DNA of 64,000 nucleotides from contig MU008207.1 in the NCBI GenBank assembly GCA_010909165.1, forward strand, positions 62,001 to 126,000. The letters run 5' to 3'. Positions 7,394 to 57,484 of this stretch are shown here, piece by piece (within the stretch, counting starts at the first letter, position 1; each line of letters starts with the position of its first letter). The notes beneath the pieces are model-generated. The model had not been told where the DNA came from. It did not search any database and worked only from the letters and a program-made list of their open reading frames with translations. Made by a program: the position numbers and the translations under genes. Source of the stretch: Anthoceros angustus (taxonomy: Eukaryota > Plantae > Anthocerotophyta).

Positions 7394-7395
7394 AA

Positions 7396-25706: not shown

Positions 25707-25795
25707 GGATCGAATCCAGCCGACCCGTCTGCTCAAGATTCGTCGGGCGGCGTTTGTGGGCGGCTGGGCTTCGAAATGACCAGATGGACAAGGCC

Positions 25796-30400: not shown

Positions 30401-33048
30401 CTTCCGACACGCGTCTCCACAATTTCCCTCCATTCACGGGAGGTCAGGACAGATCTTGCAGGGAATGTCTGTGCCCATGCCTTCATGCCGGCCCGCGGTA
30501 GAGACCGAGTGCACCATGAACGACGCTATCCCTGGAGCCCCTCTGTTGTGAGGCCATGCGGTGGTCCCTCCGGCCAATAGGTTCATTTCATACCAGCGGG
30601 GATGCCCTCACTCCCTCGCCTTTCCTATCCATGTCTACCTGTCTACCCGCTTGCGGTACCACGGCCGGCCCGTCGGCAGGTGGGCGGGGCGCAGGCGGCG
30701 AGCGGCGTGGCCCGGTTTACCGTGGAAACGCGGGCGGGCGGCGGCGGCGGCGAGGCGGCAGGCGGGGCTGCGGTCGAGGCGGGCGGGCGGGCGGGCTGCG
30801 AGCTGCGGTCGGGCGGTCCGCAGGCGGGCGAGGCGGCAGCGCATCGGCGGCGGCGGGCGGGGCGTGGTGGCGCGGCGGCGCCAGGCGGGCAGCACGGCGG
30901 CGGCCTCGGGCGCCCGGCGGGCGGGCGGCAGGCAGGCGGGCGGTGGCGGGCAGGCGGCGGCGGCCGCGGGCGGCGGCGGGCAGGCGAGGCGGCGGGCGGG
31001 CGGGCGGGGCGAGGCACCAGGCGCAGTATGAGTCCTCCCCATCCCTACACCAAGCACCTACTAACCTTGTCCCCATTTCTTGCACATGGTGATGCCAAAT
31101 TGTTTGATGCTCCTTCTCTTCCAAATGTCGACTTCCACACGGTACTGCTTGCCCATGCGAGTCTTGTGCGGACCTCTGCTTGTGGTGGGATGGCGGGCCC
31201 ACCTCTCCTCCTCACATGCCGCAGCCCTGACCTCGGCCACGGCATGTCAGGCGGCGGTGGAGGAGGTTTGCTCCTCCGACCTCACCCGATCCTAATATGT
31301 GGAGTGAGTTGTTTCTGGTCTTATGACCGAAGAAGCCAATGCATCCTACGTAAATACGAGGAGCTTGATGTCTTTATTGCGACAGGAGGACCTAGCGACC
31401 TCATACATACATAGAGAACTACCCTTGGACTTTGAAGTTCTTTTCGGTGAGGGCGTGGTCGAAGGTATTTTGGACTGGACTTCATCTTGCGAGTGCCTTC
31501 CATTTGGAGCGCACTATTTCATTCATTCTCATTTTGATGGGTGGCCATTGGGTCCTAACGATCCTTTGGGAGGCCTCGCGGTCCAAGCACCGAGTCAGGA
31601 GGACTTCAAGTGGATGGCCAAGTTTCACTCGGCTTGACTCACAGGCAGCCTCGGTGTCGCTCCCTCCTGGATTTCATCTCAACGTCTTCCAGATTGGACT
31701 CACGCCAACCATGTCTTGTGGGAGGAGATGAGCGACCTCTACATCATCGAGGACGGTGACCATGGGGGTTAGGGCTGCTGGTCATGTGCTTTAGGCACCG
31801 TGGAGCGGGGTTTTGATTTAGGAGGCCTTCACGATTTACATTTGTAGGTTTCTTGATCCCGCTTCCCACAGTGGTGACTTGACCAAATTTTGACGCTTCC
31901 TCCTTGGATATTCCCACCACCGGGCCGATATCCGTGCCCCTTTTTTCAACTTGGCCATCGGTTCATGCTTGCCGCCACATAGAGAACTACCCTTGGACTT
32001 TGAAGTTCTTTTATTTGAGGGCGTGGTCGAAGGTATTTTGGACACGGACTTCATCTGCGAGTGCCTTCCAGGTGGGCGCACTATTTCATTCATTCTCATT
32101 TTGATGGGTGGCCATTGGGTCCTAACGATCCTGGAGGCCTCGCGGTCCAAGCACCCGAGTCACGGAGGACTTCAAGGTGGATGGCCAAGTTTCACTCGGC
32201 TTGACTCACAAGTCGCACGGCCGGCCTCGGTCGCTCCCTCCTGGATTTCATCTCAACGTCTTCCACGAATTGGACTCACGCCATGTCTTGTAGGAGGAGA
32301 TGAGCGACCTCTACATCATCGAGGACGGTGACCATGGGGGTTAGGGCGCTGGTCATGTGCTTTAGGCACCGTGGAGGCGAGGGGTTTTGATTTAGGAGGC
32401 CTTCACGATTTACATTTGTAGGTTTCTTGATCCCGCTTCCCAGTGGTGACTTGACCAAATTTTGGCGCTTCCCTCCTTGGATATTCCTGCTTTGGGCGGA
32501 TATGCCCCTTTTTCAACTTGGCCATCGGTTCATGCTTGCGCATCGTGTTCCACGTGCCTAAATTGATGGACCGCTTTCCATTTTCCCTTGGCCTTCTCAC
32601 CTACCCCGGCTTTTGCCCCAGCTTTCCATGTGCGTCACACTAGCTTATTAAGTGAGAACCCATACAGGCTGGGCTTCTTTCATTGTCTTTTGGCATCGCG
32701 GACCTCGCTCTTGAAAGGTTTGTTGATTTCATAGTTGCCGCAACCACTTCAAAGGGAATGCGGTTCCTAAGGTGCCCACACGCTGCCTCCACAATTTCCC
32801 TCCGCCATTCACGGAGGTCGTGATGATCTTGCGAGGAATGTCTGTGCCCATGCCTTCATGCCGGCCCGCGGTAGAGACCGAGTGCACCATGAACGACGCT
32901 ATCCCTGGAGCCCCTCTGTTGTGAGGCCATGCGGTGGCCCCTCCGGCCAATAGGTTCATTTCATACCAGCGGGGATGCCCTCACTCCCTCGCCTTTCCTA
33001 TCCATGTCTACCTGTCTACCCGCTTGCAGTACACAGCCAGCTCCCCGT
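27481..33048 (+). repeat. Complex tandem array with ~5 copies of an orphan coding-like block and two GC-rich tracts
   Basis: Block catagagaactacccttggactttgaag...gaccatgggggttag recurs near 27870, 28470, 29593, 31410 and 31978. Confidence 0.85.
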
Positions 33049-33399
33049 CGTTGCCAACAGTGCCTCCCGCGATGCACCTCAGATGACAAGTGTTCTGAAG
33101 AGGTTAAGGGCTCTCCATGTCCACAGTGCAGGTCTTCATTCCACTCCCACACCATCTGCTGCAGTGGGATCCCCCGTCGCCTGCAATACAAGCACACGGC
33201 TGTCACCGCTCGATGCAGGCGATACATGTCCGGGAGGTAATTTGTACATTGCAAGCCTGCCTCGTACGCCATGTCCCTCGCCACTTGCATGTCCTGCACA
33301 CAACCTTTGTCGTCAACAGCAACTGTTGGTGCTCACATTCACGACGGTCTTGGCCTGACGTTCACTTACCCACATCGGATGCAATTGGAGGCGGTGCCA

Positions 33400-35060
33400 C
33401 CTCGGTGCAACGTTGCAGGCGTCGTGGTCGGGGACATAGTAGTCGTTGTCGTCCTCCTCGTCTACCCCATAAGCGGGCGGCCCTACCGAGCCGGCCGCTC
33501 CTCCTCACGGAGGCCTCATGCGAGGCGTGGCTGCTATGTCATCGTCCCCGACCTCATTTTCCTCACCATGCAAGTTCCACACCCGAGCGAAAGTCGACAG
33601 CTCTGTCCTCATGGTGGGCATGAATCTTGCGTGCAAGGAATGTATGCCAAGGGTTCGTGGTATACCAAGGCAAGAGCGGGAGGCGGCGGACGAAGAATGG
33701 CGGAAGGGGCGGAGACATCGATCTGACCAAACGGCGGGTGCATAGAACGGTGGTGGCCTTGGCGCAGCCACCGATGTTGTTGGCGATTGGTGTGGAGGTG
33801 ATTATGCGTGCGATGGACACCTCCGATTTAGTCGCGGGTGTAGGGTGTGCGGAACCGCGGTGGATGTGGTTTCTTGCCGCAAGTGTGAAGGATGGAGAGG
33901 GAAGGAGCGGCGTCACGAGTGCGCGTGCTCGAGCGTGGCACCGGGCGTGGGCAATCGCTTTTCCGCATATTCGCACATCCTTGGAATGGAGGCGGAGGAG
34001 TTTGCCTCATGAGTGGCTAGTGGAAGCGAGGAGGTGGTGCGGAAGGTCAAGGAGGACTTACAGTGCAGCTTAACGATCACAACACACGGTAGCCGAGAAA
34101 GGGACGGTTGTGTCCGGTAGCCAGTGCCGTCCAGGGAGGTGAAGCTCGGTGGGACAAAGGGCAAGGAATCGGGTGAGCTGGCCGAGGATGGCCGTTGTGG
34201 AGCGGAGGAGGCGGTGCCAGTGATTGTCCAGAAAGTGCAACGCTTGGAGGAAGTGCCACCTCCGGTGCAACGCGTTGCGGCACGTGTCCGGGGACATAGT
34301 AGTCGTTGTCGTCCTCCTCGTCTACCCCATAAGGGCCCTACCAGCCAGCCAGCCGCCTCCTCCTCTGGAAGGCCTCCGCGGACGTGGCTGCTATCGCCCC
34401 GACCTCATTTTCCTCACCATGCAAGTTCCACATTTAACGAAAGTCGGCAGCCCGTCCTCATGGTGGGCATGAATCTTGCGTGCAAGGAATGTATGTGCCA
34501 AGGGTTCGTGGTATACCAAGGGCAAGAGCGGGAGGCGGCGGACGAAGAATGGCGGAAGGCGGAGACATCGATCTGACCGACGGCGGGTGCATAGAACGGT
34601 GGTGGCCACGCACGCCACCCCGGCGTTGTTCGTGGAGGTGATTATGCGTGGACACCTCCCGCCAGACACGGGGTGTAGGTAACTGTGGATGACGAACACT
34701 GCCGCAAGTGTGAAGGATGGAGAGGGAAGGAGCCACGATGTGGTGCGCGTGCTCTGGCCGATGGCACGGACACAGGCAATCGCTTTTCCGTAGCCTACAT
34801 CCTTGGAATGGAGGCGGAGGAGTTTGCCTCGCAGTGGCTAGTGGAAACGCCGAGGAGGTGGTGAAGGTCAAGGAGGACTTGTGCAGCTTAACGATCACAA
34901 CACACGGTAGCCGAGAAAGGGACGGTTGTCGCCCAGCCGCTGCGTCGGCACGAGGAGGTGAAGCTCCGGTGGGACAAAGGGCAAGGAATCAAGTGATGAG
35001 CCGCCCAAGCGGGGATGGCCGTTGTGGAACGGAGGACGGTGCCTGCCAGTGTCCGAGAAA
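33400..35060 (+). repeat. ~0.86-kb imperfect tandem duplication
   Basis: gggacatagtagtcgttgtcgtcctcctcgtctaccccataag at 33431 and 34291, with colinear downstream sequence. Confidence 0.85.
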
Positions 35061-35543
35061 CACGCGAGGAAGGGGTCTAGCAGGACCATTTTGTTTCTTG
35101 TTATTTTTGCTTACTATCGATCGATTATGAGCTTGCCATGGTGTGCATTAGTGGCAATGGTAATATCTGGCGGTGGCAGCGCGGCCATTGTGTGGACGAG
35201 GCAGGTGACCGGTCGGCGTCATTATATGCAATTGGTAGGAAACCCCCAGAAAATGATTCTGAATAGTGATGTGTTTTAGGCGGTCCAGTATACGCTCCAC
35301 TACAAGTGTCATGTGAAGAGGAAAGGGGTTGGCGGTTAAGGACACGAACACAAGGAAGGCCAAAAGGGTTGACAAATCGCTAGTGGACATAAATGTCATG
35401 GTTGCCATGCGGGTTAGGCTGTCGAACTGGGGTGGATGACAATTCGAGTTCATGACAGGCAGAGTGGCAGGCACGCGGCACGAGAACTGCAGCTGCCAAT
35501 TGCAGTCTTGGCATGCAGAGAAAATTCGCGATCCCGTCAATGG

Positions 35544-36212
35544 GGCGGTGTCGCGCCACGGCCGCATAGCGGACATGGCAGCATGCCATCCTATCAAAAT
35601 CCACAAAACAAAAAGTCTTTCAACTACTTGCTATCAACTCGTAACCTTGGGCCACATGCGTCATCACCTCCGTCTCACTGCGTTTACAAATGGCAAAATT
35701 TATCGCTTGGGATGGTTGTCCTCTGCACACACCACATGAAGCATCACAAGGTGCTCAAAAGTGCTTGGGATCCGTCTGGCGTTTCTATTGAATCGACATC
35801 AACAATCCGCCTCAATGACGGATTGCCGGACTTTGTAGCCTACACCGCCGATCTTAATTATCGCCCGAATTCAAGCGTGATCACACCCGCACATGTCGGA
35901 GATCTTCGCCGAGCCTTAATTGCGCTTGGCCGTATTGCGCTTGTATGGTCCACATAACCACGACACCATCCTATTTCCATACCCATGCCACTCATCATGC
36001 CACCACACACATAGCACACACACCATCACACTCAGTTCTTATCTACCTCTTTCTGCTGCGTGCCATGGCGGTGTCGCGCCACGGCCGCGCATAGCGGACA
36101 TGGCGCATGCCATCTATCAAAATCCACAAAACAAAAGTCTTTCAACTACTTGCTATCAACTCGTAACCTTGGGCGTCATCACCACCTCCGTCTCACTGCG
36201 TTTACAAATGGC
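35544..36212 (-). repeat. 3' repeat block (B1-A2-B2 in element orientation)
   Basis: X-Y-X' on plus. X starts ggcggtgtcgcgccacggcc and ends tttacaaatggc. Confidence 0.85.
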
Positions 36213-37964
36213 CCCCAAAGTTGGGCTTTCGTATGGCGGCGTCATGTTGTAAAGCACCACTTTGGCACTCTCAAATGCCGTAGAATCGTCGGTAAAACCT
36301 TGAACATGCCATCCCTTAGTTGTGGTTCCGGCGGTTTATCGTGATCCATTCTCCACATGGCTAATACGCGACCACCGTCGCTCTTCCGGATCGAAATACT
36401 CATCAACTTGTGCTTTGCCCAACCGTGCCGTTCTTTCGCTCGATGCGCGCCATGAGTTCTTCTTCTTCATCGCTATCTAGTTCGGTCTTCACCCTAGGCG
36501 GTTGCCACCCATTCAAACCATTTACATAATCTTTTTCGATACATGCCTCGGATAATCACCCACATTGTCGTTCGAAGATACCAAGATTCGGTGGCTTCAT
36601 CCCATTCCAACACTCCGTGCGTAAGCAAACACCACAGAAAGCTCGTGGGTACCCAGGTGGCGAAGCGTCACCTTTTCTCGTGCAAGTGACTTAGCCAAAC
36701 TTTCGGACTTCGTGGGTCGGTGGTTTTCCTTGTGCAGTACATTAAGAACCCTTGGTGGGCGGTGATCAAACACGATGCATGAGCGGTGATGTTCCGATTT
36801 TGAAAGGCCCTTCACGATGGCGGTCCACACGAGCTTTGCTGTTCATGCCCCTTCACCGACTCAAAAGATCTCTATGATCATAAGGAAAACTCTCTATGTT
36901 GCAGCCCTCATGGTGTGATTCCATATACAAAAATGCTTGCAACTCGAAATGTCTCGGGTCGTTCGGGTTTACCGGTGATACTTCCTTACCAACGGTGTTT
37001 TCCACTTGTCTTCCCATGGCTGTCACGGAAATTGTGGAACACTTGTGCTCATTCTCCGGAAGCATGATTTGCAAGTGTGGTGCCTTCCATATCCATGTCA
37101 ACCACCGTGTTGTCCCCTAGCAGAACCCTCTTTGATGCTCTCGAATTTGGAAAGCGGGTGTTGTTAGTGTTGGTCAAACAACCATATGGTAGTTGATTCT
37201 GAAGACTACTTATGTTTGCAAGCGGCCTTGCAAAGCGAGTGTCTTGCTTGTTAGTCAACACAAGGTGGCACGATTACAGCGAATGTCACTTGGTCTTACA
37301 TGGATCGTCACCGCCTTCTCACTTTTGTCACTTGCCGTCTACATAACAAACATACCATGCACCTCTCGCCGTGCTCACATCCGGATACTTGATGCCATGA
37401 CCACCTTCGCGCTTGTTCTTCACCCCAATTCTTCCGTGATCACCGCCTTCTCACTTTTGTCACTTGAGCTGCCTCTTATCCCTATCTCAAACTACCGCCT
37501 TTATTAACAACTCGATTACGCTCGATCGTGTGCTTGCTACGATGTTCCATCGTCGCCGCCTTTCCTTCACCGCAACAACTCGTTGTTGATGTCGGATCGA
37601 GCCGCCTTCCTTGCTTCGCACCCACAGCGGTCACGCACAATTAGCTTTCTCTCCACATGCCTTGTGACGACCCCCGTTCACCTTTTCTACACTTCTGCGG
37701 ATCGATGCACTCACACTGTATTTCTCCGGCAAAATTGTCGGGCCTTCTCCAATGGATCGCTGAATCCTCCAGTCTATTGTAGAATCCTCCTTCGTGCCCA
37801 ATCCTCCGTCCACACCTTTACTTCCTTGCGCTCGCCAACCCAGACGTCTCACACAACCCGCATATCGATAAGGCAAGTAACGGGTTTTATAGACCTTCCC
37901 TTTAGTGACTCTCTTCCCGCGCCCACACCGTGAGTCGCGTTTACAGCCCCCAGCTTCTTTCCGC

Positions 37965-38110
37965 CCTAACTTTTTCGTGCATTTGTGACAAAACCATTCT
38001 CCTTAGGGATCGCTTTCAGCGGTCGAAGACAAAAGACATGATGTCCTTGGTTGCCTTTGGTCACACAACCCGCATCGATTACGGGTCGATGATTTGACCA
38101 CGATGTTTGC
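37965..38110 (-). pseudogene. PHD finger at the integrase C-terminus (frameshifted)
   Basis: LCD..GNQGHHVFCLRP-LKAIPKE.WFCHKC across a 1-nt shift. Confidence 0.8.
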
Positions 38111-38199
38111 GGCGGATCAACGGTGGCTTCCATGCTTGTGGTTGTATGCGTATCAAGATTCGGCAAGTGGCAGGGCGGATGTCGCATGTGCTCCTTGCA

Positions 38200-39250
38200 T
38201 CGGCGCCCATCTTGCCCTTCAACTCGATGACCCTTGCTCACCAGCGTTCACCACTCTCAAAATCAACCGTCCGTGTTTACGTCCAAAGTGCGGAAGGGCG
38301 ATGTTGAAGATACGAAATCACCCGAACTTTCGGCCTTTGGCTTCCATGATCCTCCTCGTGTGAATGCATACCTCAATTGATCTCGTCATGCGATGGCGGA
38401 TTGTCCATCGCCATGGGTATCACTCGTTGTAACAACTTGGCCCGGTTTCGTAACTCGAGCAACACTCATCCACATCTTGTGTCGATCCGGTTTGGAATAT
38501 GTATGCGCCACTATGTTGGGCAACCGGCATTCTGCCAAACATGATATGTAAGGTGAAGTTGCCCGGGGCTGCACATGCGATCAGCGGCGGGGCAGCGTGG
38601 TAGCAACTCATCCCAACAATTGGGCTCGATCTCGTGCGGCTTGCAGTGAATCCTTGAAAGTTTGCACCGGCCTTTACGCTAAACCATACGCACGAGGATG
38701 ATCCGTGGCGTGCGTCGTGATCTATCAAACTCCGATCCAACAACGCTTGGAACTCTCCTCGAATTCGTTTCCTTGATCATCGGCACCTGCGCACGACTTC
38801 CATATCCGCTCAAAACGCCGTAAGAAAGCTCGTGCGTGAATTGGGAAGTTCGATGGAAGGAATGCCAATTCCACCCACTTGGAGAAGTGTTCTATCATGA
38901 GCATACAATGCTTGTTGCCTTGCTTGGTCAATGGTAGCTCGGCATGAGGTCAACGGACCATCGAAAGAACAGACCCGAATAGGCGTGAATGCAACACCAC
39001 ATCAGGCTGTTGAACCTTGCTTTGGCGCATCACAAGCACATCTCGACACCACTCGCTCGGCGTTACATTCCGGACCAAAAATAGGCACTCTTGACATGAT
39101 CGTCCTTTTACAAGTGCCCAAGTGTCTTGTGCACTTTACTCACTATCTGTTCCGTTCCTCTATGGGAGGGACCATTTTACACACTCCACGATCATCACTA
39201 ACAATTTGCCATCCCTCGGTATACCTCATGACCTTAGTCGACTTTTGAGC
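38200..39250 (-). pseudogene. DDE integrase (frameshifted)
   Basis: VHKTLGH, WSVDL, IEHFSKWVEL, DQGNEF, LLDRSLIDH, IMFGR, GDFVYL, in order. Confidence 0.85.
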
Positions 39251-39449
39251 AGTGCGGCATCTGAATCAACTACTTGTCCTTCCTTCAATAGTGAATAGCA
39301 TGCCCATATTTCCATATGTCTCGTCCTCCCTCATTGAGTTGTTTTCTTCCTTCGACTTGTGGCCATGAGAGCCATATACATGCTTGGCATGTATAGAGCA
39401 TGATCAAAATCTGCCGGCAGTCCATCTTTGTCATCAATCTTGGGTTCTG

Positions 39450-40700
39450 CTAAGTCCATCCGCATTGTGATGTACTTTTGCCCGCATGCTATGTGCATAT
39501 CATACTCGGCAGCGCCCACCTTGCGAGCTTGCCACTCAACTTCATGTTCGTCATTAACGATTACAGCGGCGGTGATCGATCACGAGTTGGAAGCTCTGCC
39601 GAACAAATAAATTAAATGTAGAAGCGCCCCACGCGCGACCAAACATTCACCCTCATACGACGAATAATTGGCTTCCACGGAATTGTTCGACCTACTCGCA
39701 TACGCAATCACTCTTTCTTTTCCTTCACATCCACTGTGCAAGTCTCGATTCGATTGCACTCGGTCGGTATCTGAGTGAACGGTTTTTCAAAATCAGGCCG
39801 TTTGAGCATGGGCCTTTCTGACAATTGATCCTTTAACTCCCAAGCATGTTCATGTTTGCTCCCCATTGCATGCCCCTTTTCATCAGATCATACAATACCT
39901 TGCAAGTGCTGCTCATGTTCCTGATGAATCGGCGATAATAGTTGACGAGTCCCAAGAATGCTCTCAACGCGGCTACGTCCCTTGGTCTTGGCATAAGATT
40001 GATAGCCTGCACCTTCGCCAGCTGCGGCAGCACGCCTCCTGGCACAATCTTGTGACCCAAATATTCTATCTCCTTGTAAGCAAACTTACACTTCTTTGGA
40101 TGTGCCTTGTTGAGGGCATCTCTGCGGAGCGTTTGAGGTGTTGAATGTGTTCCTCAGGGCTAAACACCAAAATGTCATCAATGTAACACCTCACGAATGG
40201 TAATCCTTGCAACTCCAAGTCGCCACCCTCGAAAGTAGATGGAAGCGTTTTCAGCCCAAAAGGCATCGTCCCATTCCCACAACCGTTTTGCCCCGAGCCG
40301 CTTTTACACTTGTCTTCTTCTTGATGACAATTTGATTGAATCGAGCGGAATCCAACGTCGTAAAATACTTGGCCGTAATCGCGTCAAAGATTTCATCTGG
40401 GGTAGGCATGGGATATCGCTCCATAGGCGTTACCTCATTCAGCGCCCGATAATCTCCACACATCCGCCTGTCCTTCCATTCGCCGTTTTTGTCTTTCTTT
40501 AGCGGAAGGACCGTGGCCGCAGCATACTGTGAACTTGATTTCCGAATTAATCCAGCTGCAGCAAGTTCCCTACACCGTTTATCCACAATGTCCCACTCTG
40601 CTGGGCTCAACTTGTCGTCTTCGGAAAACCGGCTCGTTGGTAGTAGTGATGATTTTGAACTTGATGCGCTCATAACGTCCAGCTCTTGCCGGTGAGCAGC
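39450..40700 (-). pseudogene. Ty3-type reverse transcriptase and RNase H (frameshifted)
   Basis: RRMCGDYRALN, YPMPTPDEIFD, MPFGLK, CYIDDILVFS, LRAFLGLVNYYRRFI, VIAYASRSNNSVEANYSSYEGE. Confidence 0.92.
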
Positions 40701-40929: not shown

Positions 40930-41855
40930 TATTCCACACTCACCAACCATTGCACACAGTCGGTCAAATGCTTGTCCCGGTTTGCATCCGAAAGCTTGAC
41001 ACACCTCGCGTATAGGTGCTGCCATCGTCAAAACCCATCGCTCGTTCCTGCTCTACAATCGTGGGTTCCCCCATCTCCTCACCATTCATGTTCAATACCA
41101 TGCCCGCACCACCTCGGCGAAAGGCATATGGTGGCCGTCTTGACGATGTGGGCCAAGCTCTCCTGGGCTCTCCCACAACATTGACAGGATAGTGTGGCAG
41201 CCTATCCATCCTGCTCACCTGTTGCGACCGCCTGCCCTCCTCAAGGATCCCATCCAGGTTCCGCTTACTTGGTGTGGTTAAACCTCGATGCTGCCTGAGT
41301 GTTTCCACACTTGCAATGTTCGTCTAGAAGCTGCGGAGACGATGAGCGTACGACCCTGTTTGTACCGCGTCAATGATGAACTCCTCGCCCGACTCGACCT
41401 TTTCATAATTTCTCTCACATGACCCCGTTTGTCAAAAGCTCCGCAAACATTCTCCAGCAAGTACCAACATGCCGGATTGCATCGCTGCACTTCTCTCAGA
41501 ATCCTATCACTTCCCCCGCCAGTCGCACTCCGTTGCCTTGACCACGTCCAGCCTTGGAGAAGGTCTTGCACTCCCATCCTGCAATCATCATGTCAACCGG
41601 GCATCTCATTGCCTGTAGCTGTGCTTTTCCCACCAGCATCACATCAGTGGGCAGTTTGGTCTGGCACCCTCTTATGGCTTCCACACTCAGCAAGCTCGGA
41701 TGCATTTTTTGTAGCCTGATAATCCTGGATTTGGCCACTGCCCGAGTCTTCTCATCAATTTCTACACATGTATACTTAGTGCGAATCCCACATCGCAGAC
41801 ACACTCCGGTCCACTACTAATTCCACGAACACAACTCCATGAGATGGATGCCTGT
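40930..41855 (-). pseudogene. C5 cytosine DNA methyltransferase domain (DNMT3/DRM-like sequence, canonical motif order) within pol
   Basis: Motif I MELC..GISSG, II CVEID, IV MIAGWECKTFSKAG, VI YLLENV, VIII GSYAHRLRSF*TNI, IX EQERAMGF; motif X region degenerate. Confidence 0.88.
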
Positions 41856-42199
41856 TCATGCACTCGCCACGAATCACTTGGTTGTCGATTTGTAACCCCA
41901 GTTTCCTATGATTTCATTGTGGCGAGCTTCTTCCGGACAATTGCGGTGATTCGCCATATTTGCATCCGCTGCTGTCGAATACGCTCTCTTTCCAAAGCTT
42001 CCTCTACGGGTGGGGTGACTCACGCGCACATCATTCGATGTTGTGCTTTCTTCGACACCTCGTGTCGTGCAGTCTTGTGTCTCTTCCCACCTCCCTCGGT
42101 GAACACTTTTACTGCGCATCGTGGCATACTTCTTGATCTTTCACCATGCCTCCTCATGTCCGGAGGAATTCGCGACATGTGTGAAATCTCCATCCGCCA

Positions 42200-45000
42200 C
42201 TTTGGCCTATAAAATGCCACAGTGCGGATCCACCCCATTCTTTGGCCCGTCGTAGCATCTGCACCCAACACACATCATAGTTTCGTGCATAAAACCAAAC
42301 AATGTACTTCCACCACACGCATCTGCTGTTCACGGCTTATACTCTATCCGAATCGGATCGCGAGTCATCCCCATCACACTGTTCTTTGGTGCTGCGGATG
42401 TGGTGATCCGTACCTCCTGCTTGACTTGTCTCCATACATTGCGGTGCTTCTTGCACCGTGCCCCAAGCAACACGGATCGCACGGTGTCTACTAACACACT
42501 CCGGTGCAAAGCCATTGGCGGTGACTTCTCGTTCGCGATTCTTCACTAACGCTATTCCACCTTTCCCCTAGCTGGCTTTAGATGATCACCACGTGGTGAC
42601 AAGCCGGACACCATGTTCAACTCGGTGGCTTCCTTCTTAATCCATGCCGCATTGCTTGCTTGAGCGGTTGTGTCCGGATCCCGGTCCGCAAACTTACCGG
42701 TACATCCATGGCTTTTTCCAGCAGAATCTACGTAGGAACAACCTCATCACGATGTGTGGCGTCGTCCTCGTCTGGATGCACGAATGACTTGGGCATTCTC
42801 AAGCGATTCTATCCCCATCGGTCTTCACTTTTACACCCTTGCGAAATCAATGCTTCCCACTTTGTGCGCCTTGACCTTTCCGTCATCAACGCAAACACAT
42901 CATAGTTTCGTGCATCCGAAACCAAACAATGTACTTCCACCACACACGCATCTGCTGTTCGGCTTATACTCTATCCGAATCGGATCGCGAGTCATCCCCA
43001 TCACGCTCTTTTCTTTGGTGCTGCATGTGGTGATCCGCACTCACACCCGCTTGTCTCCATACTGCCAGTGCGCTTCTTGCACCGTGCCCCAAGCAACACG
43101 GATCGCACTGTCTACTAACACACTCCGGTGCAAAGCCATTGACGGTGACTTCTCGTTCGCGATTCTTCACTAACGCTATTCCACCTTTCCCCTAGCTGCT
43201 TTAGGTGATCACCACGTGACAAGCCGGACACCATGTTCAACCTGGCTTCCTTCTTAATCCATGCCCGCATTGCTTGCTTGAACGGTTGTGTCCGGATCCC
43301 TGTGTCCCGCAAACTTACGGTACATCCATGGCTTTTTCCAATGTAATCTCAGATTAGGAACAACCTCATCCTCGATGTGACGTCGCCCCTCGTCTGGATC
43401 GCTCGAATGACTTGGGCATTCTCAAGCGATTCTATCCCCATCGGTCTTCACTTTTACACCCTTGCCGAAATCAATGCTTCCCACTTTGGTCCCTTGACCT
43501 TTCCGTCATCAACGCAAACACATCTTCGTCCGAGTCATAGGTTTCGGCGCGCATGAGTCCTTGTTTATGCTCACGCTCATAGCCGGTTGCTCTTGCGGCC
43601 TGCACCTCACTAAGCGATTGCCTTCAGTGTAGCTCGCACCCGATTCTGCTTGTCCATTGCTCGGTCTCCTAGGCCCTTGGGTTTGAGTTCGGGATGGGCT
43701 TGCCGAGCGGCTTCCGTATGTCGGTTTTACCACATGCCACGCCTCTTTCTCCTTTGACCCACCAACACGATGCTCACATTCATCGCCTTGCGGCCTTGCC
43801 GTAAACACTTTACGGATGTCTTGAAGCTTACGGTAGCTAGCCGATCCTTTGATGGCGACTCTGCGTTGGCGTTCACCGCACATGCTCGCGATAATGTGAC
43901 TTCCAGGCTACGATATGTTGAGTCTTTGGTGTGACCTCCGATCACATTGTGCTCCTCCCGATAAGCATTGGTGGACATCTCCTTCATAACTCTTTCGGCC
44001 ATCTAAATACTGCTCCAACTCATAATCGCCCCATGTAGCATATCACGAGAAAGTTGGCGATCACCCTCCTCTGTCTTCCAGCGGCGAGCAATGTATATTT
44101 GCGCCTCCTCATAGTCTTCACCTTGGTGTCTTCACCACCGCCTCAACCGTAGATATGCACGGATCTTAGAGGCTCATTGACTTGATCACAAACTTTGACA
44201 ACTCTTGGATTTTCTCAATGGAAGATCTGGAACATCTCACCAAACTTGGCGAACATCTCGTCCACCAAATAAGTGATGACCTCGGTTGCGATGAACCCGA
44301 TGATCCTGTTCTTCATCATCGACCTTGGAGCCTTTCCTTGCCGCTTCATTCGCGGCGACATGTGCATCCTGCGGTATCTTTTCTTTGCGATCACGATAGC
44401 GAGTTAAAGCTTCACCGGCTAGAAAGCGTGCTCATCTTTACGAGTGCCATCTCGGTGTGAACTCGGACTTGTATTTGAGCACCATCTCATCAATCGCCCA
44501 TCGAACTTCTCTTCAAAGTCGACCAAGAGACATACTACCGTGTCTACAGTGAACACATCATTTCTTTGGGGTTCATAATCCATCCCGGCGCCACCACGAT
44601 TTTCTTCAAAGTCAATGGATCGATAGGGTGTGACTCCTCAAAGCGACCACTTGTCCTCACGGACGAAGGAAGGCATGCCCGGGATTGTAAGCTTAGTTGT
44701 CGGTGTGCTTTCGTTAAATCCACCACGGGTAACAACACCATCACTATCAATCCCTCCCCTGCGAGACTATGTAAGGCATTAGTCAAAGTTGGTGTCGATT
44801 CCTTCCAGCGTCGATCCGCCAACCATGCCGACTTGTCAATCACCTCACTCGAGCGTTGCCAAAATGCCGCTTCCGGCTCCACCGGATCGGCCCACTCACG
44901 AATGGATCGCACGCATAAAGCAGTAGTGAATAATCCAAGGTGTTTTCTCGGTCTACCATGGACTTATACGTGGTTCCGGCTTGGGATCATTGACTTCCTC
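42200..45000 (-). pseudogene. Putative gag region and aspartic protease; ~0.62-kb internal tandem duplication (42270-43530)
   Basis: VLVDT..SVLLG and LGAD protease motifs occur at ~42250-42500, with a repeat at ~43100. gag is assigned by position only. Confidence 0.6.
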
Positions 45001-45086
45001 TTCTCCGTCTTCCGCTCGAATCTGGGCCCCTCTCGGACCCTTGAGTCGCGTTGCTACCTTGTTGTACCGCTGCGGATTGTTGATGT

Positions 45087-45463
45087 GCAAAATTCTTGAC
45101 TTATGGTTGTCCTCTGCACACACGGTGAAGCATCACAAGGTGCTCAAAAAGTGCTTGGGATCATGCGGCTGTTCTATTGAATCGGACATCAACAATCCGC
45201 CCTCAATGATGGATTCTTTGGACTTTGTAGCCTACCGCCGGTCTTAATTCTTGGCCCGAATTCCGAGCGCCGTGATCACACCGCGCACGGGAGATCTTCG
45301 CCGAGCCTTAGTGCGCTTGGGTATTACGCTTGTATGGTCCACATAACCACGACACCATCCTATTTCCATACCCATGCCACTCATCATGCCACCACACACA
45401 TAGCACACACACCATCACACTCGATTCTTATCTACCTCTTTCTACCTGCGTGCCATGGCGGTG
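45087..45463 (-). repeat. 5' repeat (A1 in element orientation)
   Basis: Matches 35693-36073 (gcaaaatt...tggttgtcctctgcacac...gcgtgccatggcggtg). No X copy precedes it. Confidence 0.85.
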
Positions 45464-47190
45464 GCGGCGGCGAGGCGGCGGGAGGCGAGCATTATGGCAA
45501 AAGCGGGGGCGTCGCCACGGACGAGGCAGCCATCCCGCAGGCCGCGGTGGAAACTACGGAGTGTACAAAGCGCGGTGGCGGGCGGGCGAGGGGAGTAAAG
45601 GAGAGGTCGAGTGAAGGAGGCGGGGAGTGATGGAGAAGGAGGCGGTGGCGGGAAGCGGCGGAGGGGAGGCCCGGCGGATGGCGGCATGGTGCCGTGCAGC
45701 CATTTGTGGAGGCATTGCCACTCCGGCATGGCGGAGGCGAGCTAGCGAGGCGGCGGCCCGGCGGAAGGGGATCACGAGGGCAGCGTCCCTCCCAGCCATG
45801 GCGGCAGAGGCGGCGCGAGGCGGCGGGGAGGGACTCTGCCCTCCCCATGGAGAAGGAGGCGGGCGGGGATGGCGGGCGCCTCCCGGCGATGGCGGCAGTG
45901 GCGGCGGCCCAGGCGTGGCGCGGGGAGGAGGGGCCTCTGCCCTCCCCATGGCGATGGAGGCGGGAGGCGGGCGCCTCCGCCTCGAAGGAGCAGGGGCAGC
46001 TGTGGCCTCCCCACAGCGATGGCGGCGAGGCGGCGGCGGCGGCGGAGGCGGGCGGGGAGGCACTGCCTCCCCATGGCGATGGGCGGGGAGGCGGGCGCCT
46101 CGCCTCGAAGAAAGGGGCAGCTGTGGCCCCCTCGGCGATAGGCGGCGGTGGCGGAGGACCCAGGCGTGAGCGCGGGCGGGAGGCGATGCCTCCCCATGGT
46201 GATGGAGGTGGCGGTGGGCTCGGCGGAGGAGCTGCTGGAGGAGGCAGGGGAGGCGGTTGCCCTCCCCCAGCGATAAGCGGCGGAGGAGGCGGTTGCCCTC
46301 CCCATGGCGAGGCGGAGGCGGGGAGCATTGCGCCGAGGCAACCCGCCTTTGGGGCAGCGGGGTCGTTGAGGACCCAGGCGAAGCCGCCGCCGAGGCGAGG
46401 AGGAGGGATGGCGGCGAGCTGCCTCAGCCGCACGGCGGAGGCCGAGCTCGGGCATGGCGGTGGCGATGCCATGTCTGCCGCCGCCATGCCCGAGCCGGAG
46501 GTGGAGCATAGTGGCGGGGCGTGAGCGCCACCGCCGAGGCCGAGGCCGGCGGAGGGCTGGCGATGGCGGGGAGCAGGCGAGGGATGCGGAAGGCGCGGAT
46601 GGGGGCGTCCGTCTTTGGGAGGCGAGCCAACGCCACCGGTCTTGGCCCGATCGCGGCGAGTGGGAGCCAGCGCCCGGTCCGGTTGAGAAGGCTGTATGGG
46701 AGGAATAACCCGGTTCCATCGGTGGCGGCATCTCGGCGTGGGCGGAAGCGGCAGTTAAGCGAGGCTCGGGAGGCGGGCTGCGGAGGAGGCGGGGAGGCGG
46801 AGGCGCTGCTGCGAGCTCACAGTGGTGGAGCCGGCATCCGGCGGCACCGTAGGAGGAGGAGGAGGAGGAGGAGGAGCAAGCTGCGGTGGCGGTGGCGGGC
46901 GGAGGCCATGTCGGAAGAAGAAGGAGGCGGTGCGGCTCAACCCCAACTCCGCGGAGCACAAGGGGAGGAAGCGCGACTCAGTCGGACACGGTGTCCGAGT
47001 GGGGCGGCGGGAAGCGGCGGAGGAGGCGGTGCGGCTCCAACCCCAACTCCGGAGGCGGCGGCTTTCTTTGGAGGCGGGGACGCGCCAACCGGACAGGAGA
47101 GTCTTGAGCAGCGGAATGCTCTTGAAGTCGAGGCCATGGAGGCACAATTAAGGTTCTCCGGATGATCAAGCGCATGGACGAGGAGAAGTA
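45464..47190 (+). other. Very GC-rich low-complexity tract of the TIR element, possibly a degenerate ORF
   Basis: Recurrent ccccatggcg and ggcggcgg motifs. Ends in coiled-coil-like LEQRNALEVEAMEAQL. Confidence 0.45.
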
Positions 47191-48720
47191 GGCGGCGTCG
47201 TCATCCCTTGTCTTTGAGAGATGCATCGGCCGGTTTTGGTTTTGCATAGGGGCGAAGCATGCGCCGTGGGAAGGCGCGATGGGAGATAGGGTTTGATGCT
47301 AGGCTGCAATTTTGCGATGTGCGGTGGACATCCTTTTGATCAATGGAATGGCACCTTGTGAAATTTGGCTCTTTGCACGCAGCATAAACATTCTTGGCGA
47401 GGTTGATGGGTAGACGGCGGTGGTGGTGGGTCGCCATCCCCTCTTCCTGTTTCGAGCCGCATCGTGCTTCTTCTTGTTTGAAAGAGGATCGTGGCTCTCA
47501 TTGTTTCCAGCATCGCGGGTTCCTTAAGGAATACATGGTCCCAAAGTCCATAGCTGCGAAGACGAGGAAACGGCCGTGGGCTTGTGCATGGTTCGCAAAC
47601 CATGGCCGTGCCCGCGGCCGCGGCCGTCATTGCCTGCGATACCCATGCCAGCGGCTGTGTAGGGTTTGTCAATCAAATGGAGCGGCCGCCGGCGCAGCGG
47701 CCACGTTAGGGTTTGGCGGCCATTGGATGCCCTCGAAGAAAACTTTATGGTACAAGGTAGTGCAGAAACATTCGAAAACATAGTGTCCCGTCTCTTTGTT
47801 TTCAAAGGTGAAAGCACTGAAAATTTTTCAAGGACACCCGTTTCGAGGACATTGTGTGTGTCCCCTTTGGTGCTTGGCCGCTCTTGGTTAGGGCGCCAAA
47901 GCGGCCATCTGGCAAACCGTACTGGAATGTAGGGTATATTCCTCAAGATCCCCACGCCTTGCATGGGTTTCGCGAAAAAAAAAATGTCCCATCCCCTCTG
48001 TCCCCTTTGGTATGCCTCAAGGTTGCTCGAGTTGCAGCAACTAGTTCTTATAGAGAGTCATGTATGTACGTATGCAGGAAGCTTCTCCCTAGCTTCGTCC
48101 GGGAAGCGAGCATCTCTTCTGTTCATATGGTCTGACACACGGCGAGGTGGGACTTGGGACGCGCTTTCTCTTTCCCGTGCCGGCTTCAGTGGAGTAGTTT
48201 GGACTGCAAGGAGCCACTGGATAACGGCAGGAGAAGGAGCAGAATTTAAAACAGGAGGAGGAGAAAAAGAATTTTATTCCAGTCCTGCATCCTTGAAGCA
48301 AAAAAGTGTGCACAAAGGTCTCCACCAGTCGCAACCTGACCTTGTCAAACCCAGAATGCTGAACGGCGAACACAATAACTTCGGACACTGTGTAAGATCG
48401 GACCCAGTCCCAATTGACTTCGTACACTGTACGAACATTATCTCCCAATTGCTGACTCCGTCCATGTGTATACCGTCTCTGCACCTCAGAATTGTCCTTC
48501 CACATCAGAAGTTCCGAATGCAGAGGCACAATCCATGGCAAGTTACCCGGGGACGTGGGCCAGCAGGCATCACTACAGAACTTACACGCTTCTGATCTGA
48601 GTGGGACACCAAAAATTCAGTCACACTGAGAGTTTTTGTGGGAAATGCAGTGCCTACATTTCACTGACCCAAATACAAATGTCACGAGGGAGCAGAATTA
48701 CAGAGCCTGCGGCCTGCGGG

Positions 48721-51700
48721 TTAAGCATTTGGAGCATGTGCACTGCCATCGTCGTCAGCTAGCAACCGCGCGACCAAGACATCTGCCGGATCGTCTTTGA
48801 CGACACTCAGGATCACAGTTGCCGGGACTACTAGCTTGATGAACTTCTTCAACTCCGAGAAGCTGGAGTGCTCGCTGTAAGGAACTTCGTAACTGCGGCA
48901 AATCCATTAGACGAGTCATGCACGGGCGTGTATATGTACAACAAGGATGGCAGTCGTTGGCGAATGGGGACCCACCGTATGACTGCTCCTGCTGCTTTCT
49001 ACGGCCCGTGAATCGTTTCTTGTCTCGACCAAAGTTCCAGCCGGTGAGAGAATGCAACCACAGAGTTGTACCGCCCCTGCGTCAAGTAACTAACGGTCAT
49101 TCATGCATCCGGGGACCTCGTTGTGGGTGTAGAAGGGAAGCGTAGCACTCACATGATAGTGCCGAGATATAGAGCCCATTCTCTTGAAGCTTGCAATGCT
49201 CCATAACGGAACCACGTGAATCTGACTTTCATGGTCGTTGGAGGTCAGCCATCTTGTCTCGTCTTCGTGCAATGACATGCATGACAACAATCTCCGCTTA
49301 GCTGCCCCAACATAAACCTTCTTTTGGAGTGCTCAGGCCACCTCCAAAACACTCGCTCCTTCCTAAACACCACAAAGGCTGAAACCTGTTCAGGAGACGA
49401 AGCTTGTTCGAAACACACTACAGCTTTGTGTTGGGGCTTACCTATTGTGTAGGTGCCGATCAGAAACAGCGTCTTCGGATTGAATGTTTCTGCTTGAATA
49501 GCCTCGATGACAAACTGGACAGCAGCATCCTGTTCCGGAAAATCGTACTGGACGAGGCATGCTTGTCAGTCTGAGAATTGTTGAAAAATACGTCAGCTCG
49601 CTCACAGAAATTCAGACTTACCTGGGGATCACAGTACGTCGTGTCCAATATCAAAGTGTGGATTTTATTAGCCAGAAGCGCTGGGTCACTGGCCATCTTT
49701 GTGCAGTATCGAAAATCTCCAGTATGCAGAACATTCTGGAAACCACAGAATCAGATCACATACAACAAACATGAAGCAAGTAAGAGCTCAGACAGTGATC
49801 TTTGTCAAATCAGGATACCTTATTGTCAGCAAGCTGAAATAGAATCATCACAGATCCTGGACAGTGATTTGCATCGATGAACGTGACTTTGACTCCATCA
49901 ATAGTGACCGCCTTGTTCAGATCGATAACCTCAATGTAGCTCAATGGCACACCAATTTGCATGTTAACAAGGGCTGCAGTAATCGCTGAGCAGTATATTT
50001 TGCCATGTCTGAAAGCCCTAGTGAGCCCTTGGTAGTCTGCCGCAGCAATCAAAATCAAAATCTGAGGTCCAACACCAGGAAAGCTTAGTATCACCTATCA
50101 CCGGGCTCTTCGGCTCTGCTCACAAGCAGGAGCAAGACAGAAACGATTTGAGTTTCAAACGTGAAAACTTACGATCAGTGTGGAAGTGGTGAGAAACCAG
50201 TGAGAGCATTCTGTAGTTAAGTGCCTAAACGAATCCTGCAGCAGTTCACATACAAAGGTGTGATGCAGAACAGCATGGATGCCCATTTGCCACAACGATT
50301 GTACAAGCAAGCAGAGGTACCAACATACATGTACAGCAACCACGCACCACCCAAGACAATGCGCGGACGCTCACCACTCTGAAGGTTGTGCCAGGGATAC
50401 ACATCCAAGGCTGGACTGGAGGACTGATCCTCCGAGATGAATTCCTGTTCAGAGATGCAGAAGCGTTGGCTCGAGGAGGGGGCATTCGTGCAGCTTTGGT
50501 AGAACGTGATGTCTGTTGAAGAGTGGCATGTGGAGTCCTTGATGAACCTGCGGTATGTCCGAAAAAGTCGGTGATGCGTTTTGCGCTGGATGAGGTGGTG
50601 TTACCGTTCAACTTTTCCTGGCTGCCAACCTCACTGTTCTCAGCTGTGGAGAGATCCTTTGCTGATTTTAAAACTTGTATCTCAGAGATGATCTTCCTCC
50701 TTGGACCGAGAGCTGCTACACCCAAACCCAGCAGATCCTGTCTCCGAGAATATGACGAAAATGTGAGCAGAACAGACATAATGAAGGAGGAACTTTAAGT
50801 TTTCTTCACAGGATCAGCCAACAGACGACCAGATTGATCAGACAAGACAGTCAATTCAGTGTACCAAAGGGGTGCACATGCCTGACCTCTTCTTTGAGCC
50901 ACTGCAGGGTATCCCAATCGATCTCTTCCTTGATGAAGATATGAGCATACTTTGAGAGGTTCAGTTTTTCCAGCCATCGCAAAACAGGAGCCAGGCCAGC
51001 ACCTGGCGAGCTCGTCCCCCCATTCACTTCCTGATCAGACAATGGACGAGGGTATCAGAACCACATTCCACATCCAAAGCTGGTGCCATCATTGTCCAGC
51101 AAGTGCCTCAGTCTCGCTGTACCTGTTCCCTGTCCAGCTTGTCCAGACATTCATTTGTGTGTGCTTCCCGTTGCTGTAAAGGAAGGCCTCCCAGAGACAG
51201 CTGACATATGGGGCACTCAGGAGTGAACACACCACTGGACACGGAGTCAACATTGAGGCAACCATCAGCAGGTGCTGCCTCCTCTGCGAACTCTCCCCTG
51301 CAGCTGTCGTTCACCTCTTCGGAAGCCCCAACCAAATCGCCAAACATCGAGTGGGGTGCAAGGCCCCTGCTATCGTCTGAACCGGAGACCCCTGACACAA
51401 CATTCGTAATATCACCCAACGGCGGCCTCGAAGCTCTGGGGGCATCTCCCTTGTGTCGCTTCCCTCCCTTTCCTCTCGGGGTGCTCACTTGCGTCAAAAA
51501 TCTAGTTATGTCTTCCTCACAGAGAGCACTGTCTCTGTCTCCGTTGCTGACAACCGAGTCAGAAGGAACATTTCCGCCACCTCACTAGCTGCATGCTCAC
51601 CAGCATGTAAAAGACCTGCAGTTTCCGAATCCCCTGCTTCCCTAGCAGCTCTGCTACACAAGCTCAGCAGAGCATTCAACTGACTTTCCTCGCAGACTCC

Positions 51701-52156
51701 TTCCGCCCCTGCCACTGGCGCAGACGACAGGAAAACCGGCTCGCCAGATGCATCAGCAGCTTGAGTCCCGAGAACCGACTCCACATCCGCTTTCACCTCG
51801 GTTCGCGCGGAATCCCGGTCACACAAGCTCGTCATCCTTCCTGCATTGCTTTCCAGCCGCCTATCCCTCGGCTGCGATGCCGTACGAATCCTACCTTTCT
51901 GGACACTAGGCACTCCTGCCTGATGCAATGCGGTCCCTGCACTGGTCACTTTCCGAATCTTGCAACCTCCCTCATGCTCTTTGCCTCCTGTGCTTCTCTT
52001 GCACCCCGCCTTCCCCGTTCCGGAACCTCCAAAGAGACGCTCCTGCTTCGTCAAAGCAAGATGCTTCCCAGATTGCTGAAAATCATCATCGTCGCTCGCC
52101 TCTGCAACAGCCAGAGCCAGCGCCATGGCCGAATCCAGGTCTGTGTCGGCCGCCAT
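48721..52156 (-). CDS. SNM1: SNM1/DCLRE1A-like DNA cross-link repair nuclease (UBZ, SAM, MBL/beta-CASP), multi-exon, with apparent frameshifts
   Basis: CPICQ...HTNECLD, SAM WLEKLNLSKY...GPRRKI, KRITDFF, HFHTDH (1-nt deletion), DANHCPGS, ILDTTYC, YEVPYSEHSSF; stop at 48721-48723. Confidence 0.9.
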
Positions 52157-55100: not shown

Positions 55101-57484
55101 CCTGAACATTTCATTCACAAACTTACCAACTTATTAAAAATTAGTTACTTTTCTCTTCGTTTCACTTAATTACTGTTGTTCATTAATGAATTTAACTAAT
55201 GAACATGTTTGTATTATCAAACATATGAGCATGATTAATTCATCTTTTATTAATCATATATATGTTTAGAAAATGGAAAGATAGCCGCGCCGCGCGCCTA
55301 TCCCATCTGATGCTGTCAATGGCGCCTTCTGTGGGGGCGCCCTTGATGCTGCCCTTGATGCTGCCCTTGGTGCTGCCCTTGGTACGGTTTTCCCCCTTTC
55401 TTTTAGCCAATTGATGAGGACCTATCGGAAAAGACTCTGCTAAGTATAGACAGGCAAGTCAAACACATTCGTTTTTTCTTGATACTGATTCTTCTCCTCC
55501 TTGGACAAAATCTTGAATGTGTATTTCTTCTCAAATGCATCTACTACCTTGTCTAATTTGGGCTTAAATGAGCCCAACTGCTATAAGGTGCTTATACTTA
55601 TTTCTACTATAGTGCACCTTAGAACTCGCACAAAGGAGTCTTGCACGCCTGAGAACTGGGACGAGAAAAGCTATAAACTATAGTTAAAATCAACGCCACC
55701 TTTGGTAAGCATATCTATCAAGGGACATAACACAGAACTAAATCTTTTGTGGATCATTATTTTTGTAAGTTGCCGAGTACTTGTCCATTTACCTTGTGGA
55801 AGTAATTGTTCAGGATCATAGCAATAACATGATCATAATATGAGGATAGCATATTTATAACTCTTAGCATCGGTACTCTAGGCATCATTGGCACTCTCAT
55901 CAAAGGATGTGGGTGCGGTATTGTGGTGGGTTTTAAGCAGACGTATTTGGGATGATGACGGAGTGCTAGGAGCGGTAGTAGAATGTTAAGAATGCAACAG
56001 CGTGCTAGGGATGGCAGCTTGGGAAAGGTGTCATGGGTTCTTGACAATAACATAACCTATGGCGAATAATAAAACATTCTTTTGATATGATTATCAAGTT
56101 ACATGCTCTGTGCTGCACATCACCAATGCAGCAAAGCATTCTTTTGAAAATAATGAGTCATTAACTGATCTAGCCACATCTTAAGTTGCTTTCTCGTCAA
56201 TTAAATTATAACACTTTGAATCCATAATTCACAAGGTAACAAACAAAAGCCACAAATTCAATAGAACAATCCTACTTTAAGGTTTTGCATTTAAAGTTAC
56301 AAAATATGAAAGTTATGCTTGCATTGCAATTCTTCTTACACTTATTACGCAAGAACTTTCAAAGAATGTTTTTTCAGATACAGCCAACATCTTAACAATT
56401 GTTTTCTAACAATCAAATGGGAAGATGTACTAAGACGAATCTTGTTAGATCCCTGAGAAGGATTCTTTCGATTCTTATTCGAAAATGATTTGTTCTTTTG
56501 CTGAAACAAACATAACGCGCTCTCCTCCATGTTAAGACGTTCCATTGTTGAACTTCACACCTTCCTCTTATAGGAGAGCACCAATGATCTCAAAAATAAT
56601 TATGTTGTGGGCTATCTTGGAACCCGCTTGAACTGCTTGGTGAGCAAGTCTCACCGTTTGATTTTGTGGAGAGAAAAAATTTTGAAAGCTAGCCGGCAAG
56701 TTAGACCGAAGTTAAACCGTAGCTTGAGATTCTGAAATTAAAATTTCACGTGATGCAAGCTGGGGGCGTAATATCTTCTCTTACCATATTGAGCAACACT
56801 ATTTAAAGGTTCAATGTTTAAAGAATAAAATTTGGTGATGTGATATCCCGATGTGTGGCCTTTGCTTTTTGTGGATTACTAAAACTGTATGGTTTGGTAG
56901 GTAATGACAAATGTTTGGGAACCATATCTTTTCCACAGAGGGTTACCGCAATCCTATTTTTGGCATAAGAGAAGATATAGGCATACTCGGACAGCATTTA
57001 CTTGCAAGTAGTCTTACAAAAACTACAAACCTAATCTACCTAGACGAAAAGCGGGATGCTAATGCCAAGGGTCCTATGTCTGCCAAAAGACTGGGATCCA
57101 CATGGTGTGGCTAGGATGTGAGCTGTGTAAGGAATATGAAGAGTACACTTAGCACACCTACCGCAAGTGCCTTAAGTGTCATGGGATAATTTAAACTAGT
57201 ATTTAATAATTATTTATATTATTTCTTAGATATAGTTTACTATTATTTACTTAGCTGTATGGACATTTAACGTGGAAGCTAGAGAATACTATGAGGGTTA
57301 TTTAGAGATAGAGGATGAAATTGAATATATAAACAAAGTTTGGCGCTAAGATACTAAGGTTAACTTAAGTCTGCTAATCAAATTGTTGATTCTAGTTTGC
57401 TAAGTAAAGGAGGTTTGGACTTAATATCAAGTATATCTAAAGTTTTCATGTACTTACTATATAATTCCCGACCAAGGGATTTAG
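51924..57484 (+). repeat. Segmental duplication copy B
   Basis: Paralog of 1-13571 lacking the gypsy insertion. Confidence 0.93.

Follow-up and report, generated by a model that had tools for sequence, protein, structure and literature searches.

The window, as we call the whole 64-kb stretch of DNA analysed here, contains on its minus strand a Ty3/gypsy retrotransposon that carries a cytosine methyltransferase: the region 41853-40941 was confirmed at the level of sequence as a DNMT3-like C5 methyltransferase (DNMT) domain located between the protease and the reverse transcriptase (RT) of the element. Taken as a whole, the data make it reasonably probable that this is a copy of the kind described as KnitGypsy-Dnmt3, likely young and misread at methylated cytosines and likely residing in a non-seed land plant, whose DNMT would act on CG sites of its own cDNA and which would integrate through an internal att site.

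The domain was recovered in two parts by searching the window in all six frames with a profile built from five homologous proteins, the window itself being excluded. Matches were obtained at 41852-41535 (E 2.9e-19) and 41398-40994 (E 2e-35) with scores of 57.9 and 111 bits, compared to -0.8 bits for the best of 20 shuffles, and no further match to this methyltransferase profile was detected anywhere else in the 64 kb. A frameshift-aware alignment to the relative P0049, with X placed at the breaks, yielded 106 identical residues in 279 columns at the cost of four frameshifts and one stop (score 396; eight shuffles gave 28-41). Motifs IV (GWEC, 41579-41568, with the catalytic Cys kept), VI (ENV, 41454-41446), VIII (HRLR, 41344-41333, with the stop just behind it) and IX (AMGF, 41043-41030) follow one another as the original prediction had stated, and an X-like motif, GQAFD, is found at 40977-40963; motif I (about 41850-41810), which had been claimed as well, is broken at about 41828-41799 and uncertain. 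In motif IV the window reads WEC and not PC. Since the motifs run from I to X and are not circularly permuted, DRM, the plant RdDM methyltransferase, was rejected as a candidate. The stop-free piece 41798-41499 had clusters with PF00145 as its top ESM Atlas matches (score 0.93). Single-frame DNMT pieces of the window gave no PF00145, dcm, NCBIfam or PDB match, and none of 36 candidates matched when the first DNMT piece was used in a word-based search. The silence of Pfam, NCBIfam and PDB is explained by the frame breaks, because single-frame pieces of the RT and the integrase of the window likewise missed their own families.

The features of the element are compiled in Table 1. The placement of the DNMT between the protease (42558-42293) and the RT (from about 40680) was borne out, and the domain order PR-RT-RH-INT with a DDE integrase is that of Ty3 elements. 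The Ty3 polyprotein of the original prediction was thus recovered, together with four features that it had lacked, namely a duplicated protease region, a PHD finger, split repeats and a self-priming signal. Matches of the second-copy protease to the protease domains of P0014, P0070, P0071, P0091, P0129 and P0148 were weak yet colinear. Neither the putative gag region nor the extra 1.75-kb region matched any of 232 proteins, 80 loci of relatives or Pfam, and the latter region is missing from the related family. A G-run followed by TGTAAACGC occurs twice on the minus strand, at 37951-37941 right after the PHD finger and at 36216-36200 before B1; the 1.75 kb between the two G-runs may represent an additional ORF or another LTR-like unit. 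Searches of Rfam gave no match in the window or in the 7 of 80 relative loci that were scanned. GC-rich simple repeats (45450-47000) adjoin A1, and identical 147-bp direct repeats at 25793-25939 and 48014-48160 bracket a 22-kb repeat-rich block that holds the element.

Table 1. Features of the DNMT-carrying Ty3/gypsy element, listed from its 5' to its 3' end (window positions).
Feature	Positions	Strand	Basis or remark
Predicted RNA 5' end/self-primer	45186-45200	-	pairs perfectly over 15 nt with 45072-45086 (inverted repeat)
Repeat A1, 5' end of element (presumed distal U3 + R + U5)	45083-45480	-	86% to 35690-36089 over 414 nt
Predicted primer-binding site (PBS) at A1/internal boundary; Tf1-type, not tRNA	45072-45086	-	inverted repeat
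Putative gag region	43600-44700	-	position alone
First copy of 636-bp tandem duplication, with protease (43182-42896)	42889-43524	-
Second duplication copy	42263-42901	-	aspartic protease 42558-42293, VLVDT motif, broken
DNMT3-like C5 cytosine methyltransferase domain	40941-41853	-	unpermuted motifs I to X; 4 frameshifts and 1 stop
Reverse transcriptase (YIDD)	40037-40680	-	
RNase H	39443-39860	-
DDE integrase with H2C2 finger and C-terminal region	38150-39178	-
PHD finger at end of pol, broken	37976-38110	-	colinear with PF00628-bearing ends of P0049, P0018, P0007
Extra 1.75-kb region between pol and B1	36217-37951	-	begins with G-run + TGTAAACGC
G-run (polypurine-tract-like, PPT) before B1	36212-36216	-	sequence; same position in relatives
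Repeat B1 (presumed proximal U3)	36067-36212	-	92% to 35544-35694
B1/A2 junction, candidate internal att site	36060-36085	-	resembles CGACA-NN-TGTCATG of relatives
Repeat A2	35690-36070	-
Repeat B2, 3' end of element	35544-35694	-

The repeats are arranged as A-coding-B-A-B and do not form an LTR pair. All three repeat junctions in the window share ACCGCC, and the ends of the element and its TSD cannot be fixed in the window. The 15-nt inverted repeat pairing 45200-45186 with the A1 boundary (45086-45072) is perfect, and in 14 of 14 relatives a self-priming match of 10-12 out of 12 nucleotides lies in the same place with a sequence unlike that of the window (controls, 6-10). This suggests that the element primes itself in the manner of Tf1, a mode known for Tf1/Sushi and Tcn1, in which the PBS is complementary to the element's own RNA (PMC6317226). 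An assignment to the Tcn1/Tf1 chromoviruses was nevertheless rejected, as the window element lacks a chromodomain, with the PHD finger in its place, and its RT falls outside the group of P0030-P0035. A tyrosine-recombinase element of the DIRS/PAT type was rejected on the basis of the DDE integrase and of TSDs in relatives; no recombinase family was found in any frame scanned, although a small ORF in the extra region could be masked by frame breaks.

The many frame breaks raise the question of the state of this copy. Between A1 and A2 there are 14 substitutions and 22 indels, and 25 of these 36 events fall no more than 1 nt from a CG (background 0.23); the two copies of the protease duplication differ by 20 substitutions and 29 indels, with 33 of the 49 events at CG (background 0.26). 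The repeat differences of the window therefore comprise more indels than substitutions, are clustered at CG/CHG and leave long error-free stretches in between, unlike the repeats of the relatives, which differ mostly by transitions. The multi-copy repeat block at 27114-33050 shows the same CG/CHG-linked differences. In the longest contigs of X1, one DNA sequencing run (share 0.08; no RNA run was listed), most differences from the window are gaps, as in a 273-nt stretch with 9 gaps and 1 substitution. The DNMT (40939-41872) is not covered by X1 contigs, nor are 39538-40004 (RNase H), 33467-35334 and 46543-47000. Among the joints listed, none spans the DNMT; given the coverage gaps elsewhere, this is no evidence for or against DNMT-less copies in this host. 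Basecalling errors caused by methylation are known for nanopore data (PMC7501810), and the assembly appears to be of the nanopore type and error-prone at methylated cytosines. The frameshifts of the window look like sequencing errors at such cytosines, and the copy is thus probably young and methylated. The broken motif I, the stop after motif VIII and the duplicated protease may indicate that it is dead.

The surroundings of the element comprise genes and further repeats. A second, less broken Ty3 element (1463-7745, minus strand) has ordinary LTRs (1463-1823 and 7396-7745) and a Tf2-type SH3 domain, and sits inside a repeat that recurs at 51924-55376. Copia RT pieces are present in opposite orientations at 60343-61605 (minus strand, CpG o/e 0.22) and 57598-58416 (plus strand), and 30-nt tandem arrays at 13617-13973 and 15390-15746. 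Two tandem, intron-bearing subtilase genes of plant type (I9, S8, fn3_6) are located at 16400-19400 and 22305-25650 on the minus strand. The best 120 matches to a subtilase exon consisted of 119 named angiosperm proteins at 45-57% identity, one unnamed protein and no alga, in a search that scored 7996 candidates from a database crowded with angiosperms. None of these is closely related, and the host that fits best is a non-seed land plant with sparse database coverage. An intron-rich gene at 48700-52200 (minus strand) has a SAM domain according to Pfam and is presumably SNM1-like, judging from its motifs.

Homologues of the element form a family. Among 35 RT matches, PF00145 is annotated in the database for 5, and the family profile shows a DNMT upstream of the RT in 12, most of the others being ORFs that start at the RT. 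A search with the second DNMT piece against 1.84 billion representatives gave 184 matches, of which 150 were listed; in these and five cluster mates the DNMT occurs together with protease, RT or integrase in 70 of 155 proteins. PF00145 scored above cut-off on the relatives P0002, P0049, P0070 and P0224. The Klebsormidium nitens protein GAQ93235.1 (CCHC-PR-DNMT; PF00145 1e-15) is identical to the window domain in 95 of 262 positions, and GAQ80425.1 is a further homologue from this alga; we infer that both belong to the elements of PMC5890265. The original prediction had pointed to Klebsormidium, a link that is upheld by these homologues and by the shared A-coding-B-A-B layout. Named members come from Klebsormidium nitens, Closterium, Scenedesmus and Cymbomonas, and known and found members are mostly algal. 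The order PR-DNMT-RT was observed in the window, Klebsormidium, Closterium and P0049, and the order RT-RH-DNMT-INT-PHD in the Scenedesmus group (support 99). In P0087, P0090, P0099, P0107, P0228 and other relatives of chlorophyte type the DNMT likewise lies between RNase H and integrase, and these different positions in pol argue that the domain has moved within pol. A scan of viral contigs with P0018 gave no match.

With respect to land plants, an RT-RH protein of the liverwort Calypogeia fissa is 81-85% identical to the DNMT-bearing P0049 and P0002; it starts downstream of the DNMT position, so that this member is known from RT-RH alone. In a quick tree the RT of the window grouped with the liverwort-like group of P0049 and Calypogeia (SH-aLRT 93), with identities of 51-52% to this group and 50-51% to the Coleochaete group. 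The DNMT of the window was placed on a long branch beside the K. nitens group (support 0.86) in a tree built without rows for host DNMT3 and DRM. Near-duplicate rows, RTs under 150 profile positions and DNMTs under 180 positions had been left out of the trees, and we consider both placements weak. Judged by its sequences, the family ranges across chlorophytes, Klebsormidium, Closterium and a group close to the liverwort RT. For the window element, whose host is probably a land plant, this broad spread fits better with persistence of the lineage in a land plant than with movement into one, the two histories offered by the original prediction. A streptophyte alga as host, which would make the window element one more algal relative of KnitGypsy-Dnmt3, is less likely. 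The mostly algal membership, the position of the window DNMT beside the K. nitens group and the equal RT identities to the Coleochaete and liverwort-like groups speak for it; the matches of the subtilase exon, 119 of 120 angiosperm and none algal in the angiosperm-crowded database, speak against it.

The type of methyltransferase was read from the relatives. The family DNMT profile matched DNMT3A (4e-22) ahead of DRM (3e-15) and HhaI (9e-9), and for the structure model of relative P0113 (pLDDT 96) the first matches were DNMT3A/B; as judged from profile and model, the family domain is DNMT3-like. The catalytic Cys is present in 80 of 80 DNMT rows with a residue at this position, preceded by E in 44 and by P in 31 relatives, and across 95 relatives Cys, ENV and RxR hardly vary. 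All 28 metagenome loci with enough sequence upstream of the RT contained the DNMT, a count that is biased by a query that held the domain and includes repeats of one site. The many breaks and the lack of Pfam matches on the pieces could also be reconciled with an old, decayed copy bearing a host or bacterial methyltransferase captured once, or with a motif string arising by chance. Profile and alignment scores far above those of shuffles, and repeat differences consisting of CG/CHG-linked indels between long error-free stretches, argue against this, and at the level of the family it is refuted by the same domain in the same place in many relatives. The one-off capture that the original prediction had named as its own counter-case is contradicted in particular by the nearest RT relatives (12 of the 35 matches), and we regard an explanation of this kind as hardly credible.

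What the methyltransferase does is the weakest step of our interpretation. The paper on KnitGypsy-Dnmt3 proposed CG methylation of new cDNA and demonstrated that SymbioDIRS domains are capable of it; in yeast, no activity was obtained with the K. nitens domain, a result that the paper calls inconclusive (PMC5890265). By analogy, we favour a DNMT that would methylate CG on the new cDNA of the element. CpG o/e is 1.0 in the element compared to 0.22-0.76 elsewhere, and thus there is no footprint of self-methylation in it, whereas CAG/CTG o/e is 0.46 in the element compared to 1.03-1.12 in genes and the other Ty3 element. The domain might instead serve as a DNA or chromatin binder or a decoy, or methylate the target site or non-CG contexts, as could be argued from the inactivity in yeast, from WEC replacing PC in motif IV and from the depletion of CAG/CTG without that of CpG. 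These depletion figures may, however, be distorted by sequence errors; moreover, Cys, ENV and RxR are conserved in the family, the KnitGypsy DNMT is reported to be under purifying selection and DNMT3-type domains of SymbioDIRS methylate CG (PMC5890265). We therefore consider such other roles unlikely, albeit worth keeping in mind, and prefer methylation of the cDNA.

The ends were analysed in relatives: P0049 had 577 matches in metagenomes, of which the 80 best were used. Seventy-one loci with B and flank represent 56 distinct sites; B-A-B forms terminate 32 of these, a single B 23 and B-A 1. Wherever the 5' end is present (14 relatives), A stands there by itself (7 ABAB, 7 AB). A-B-A-coding-B was seen in none of these 14 loci. 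L027 and L030 have a shortened A between two Bs, and L001 and L070 have interrupted B-A-B ends. The elements end in TG and CA and are flanked by a 4-bp TSD that is exact in 8 of 14 cases, agrees in three of four letters in 4 and is absent in 2. Their B1/A2 junction is a near-palindrome, CGACA-NN-TGTCA, whose 2-nt spacer reads [AG][CT] at 28 of 31 att sites, a pattern that possibly reflects GC decaying by deamination. A G-run directly before B1 is conserved, as is the PBS directly after A1. The A2/B2 junction is exact in 14 of 32 sites, has lost 2 nt in 7 and differs otherwise in 11. Extra junction letters fit the PPT or PBS in a few sites (L007, L009, L041 and L072). The TG/CA ends, the 4-bp TSDs and the CA-NN-TG palindrome inside the LTR point to integration via an internal att site and not via the ends of linear cDNA, in a family about 51% identical to the window element in RT.

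In standard LTR reverse transcription the positions of PBS and PPT set the form of the linear cDNA, and a PBS after A1 combined with a PPT before B1 predicts linear B-A-coding-B-A. In the cycle that we propose, the RNA would start inside A1 and fold back onto the PBS for self-priming, and plus-strand priming at the G-run before B would complete a linear B-A-coding-B-A cDNA with an LTR of B+A. Joining of the cDNA ends would create the A2/B2 junction, whose variability is the trace expected from such joining. The integrase would then cut the palindromic CA-NN-TG between B and A of the left LTR and insert the DNA with a 4-bp TSD, giving A-coding-B-A-B; the integrated form would be a circular permutation opened at B/A, where a 2-nt spacer separates the facing CA and TG, and a staggered cut would leave the recessed CA ends that integrase needs. 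One-LTR circles, use of both sites, recombination or collapse during assembly might account for copies with one B. Within the particle, the DNMT would be set free by the protease, so that on arrival the copy would already be CG-marked like host DNA, and the PHD finger might tether the integrase to chromatin. A plain 2-LTR circle also predicts A-B-A-coding-B, and its absence stays unaccounted for in this model.

This asymmetry (7 ABAB compared to 0 ABA-coding-B) would be more easily understood if the split repeats were copied as a unit and inserted by a recombinase as in DIRS/PAT elements, or if A2/B2 were inherited and not remade in each cycle; the same repeat layout in DIRS elements (PMC5890265) and the ACCGCC shared by all three junctions in the window fit with this as well. 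Both variants are improbable in view of the DDE integrase, the recombinase-free frames scanned, TG/CA ends with random 4-bp TSDs in relatives, the conserved placement of G-run and PBS, and the junction extras that fit PPT or PBS letters at the four loci named above. Integration at a joined junction has precedents: for retroviruses the circle-junction model was dropped and linear DNA is the accepted substrate (PMC11054761), and foamy virus integrase cleaves 2-LTR junctions (PMC1180852). As proposed here, integrase acts in these models on a palindromic CA..TG junction, which in the circle-junction model lies at the LTR-LTR junction and here inside the LTR with a 2-nt spacer. Our most far-reaching proposal is put forward tentatively: self-primed Ty3 elements equipped with an active DNMT3 and a PHD reader might form an old clade of the green lineage that survives as young copies in land plants and, once its cDNA ends are joined, integrates by cleavage at a palindromic att site within the LTR and not from linear ends, hence A-coding-B-A-B.

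The kind of element is already known. KnitGypsy-Dnmt3 of Klebsormidium nitens, described in 2018 (PMC5890265), has A-coding-B-A-B repeats with Gypsy domains and shares with the window element the Ty3/gypsy pol and an unpermuted, intronless Dnmt3-like domain. The window element differs by its probable land-plant host and the extra 1.75-kb 3' region, and it has signals of a PHD finger, self-priming and an internal att site, which are absent from the running text of that paper. SymbioDIRS-Dnmt3 combines a cytosine methyltransferase and the same repeat layout with a tyrosine recombinase (PMC5890265), and EpiLTRs also carry a cytosine methyltransferase, but with DAM, a DNMT4-sister domain and a chromodomain (10.64898/2026.05.21.726589); the accessible part of the latter work mentions 'streptophytes (Gypsy-DNMT3)'. 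Phygy and Selgy are Ty3 elements of non-seed plants that, like the window element, lack a chromodomain (PMC6317226). The elements of that survey have ordinary LTR pairs, unlike the window element, and the words methyltransferase and PHD are absent from its accessible text. A 2019 paper holds that land plants such as tracheophytes lack transposons encoding methylases (PMC6338049). The literature searched, which covered neither the supplements of 10.64898/2026.05.21.726589 nor the figures of PMC5890265, described no land-plant member, no PHD/DNMT pair and no internal att site. New are thus the Tf1-like self-priming signal and, in the related family, the TG/CA ends, the TSDs and the internal CA-NN-TG site.

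Taken alone, the window provides one noisy copy of a published kind. The repeat anatomy accounts for the DIRS-like layout of KnitGypsy-Dnmt3, and the use of an internal, uncut junction by a DDE integrase becomes testable. Were a member established in a land plant, next to relatives in chlorophytes, Closterium and a liverwort-like group, this would argue for an ancient lineage and not for a capture in a single species, and it would provide cultivable hosts for asking what the transposon's own DNMT does.
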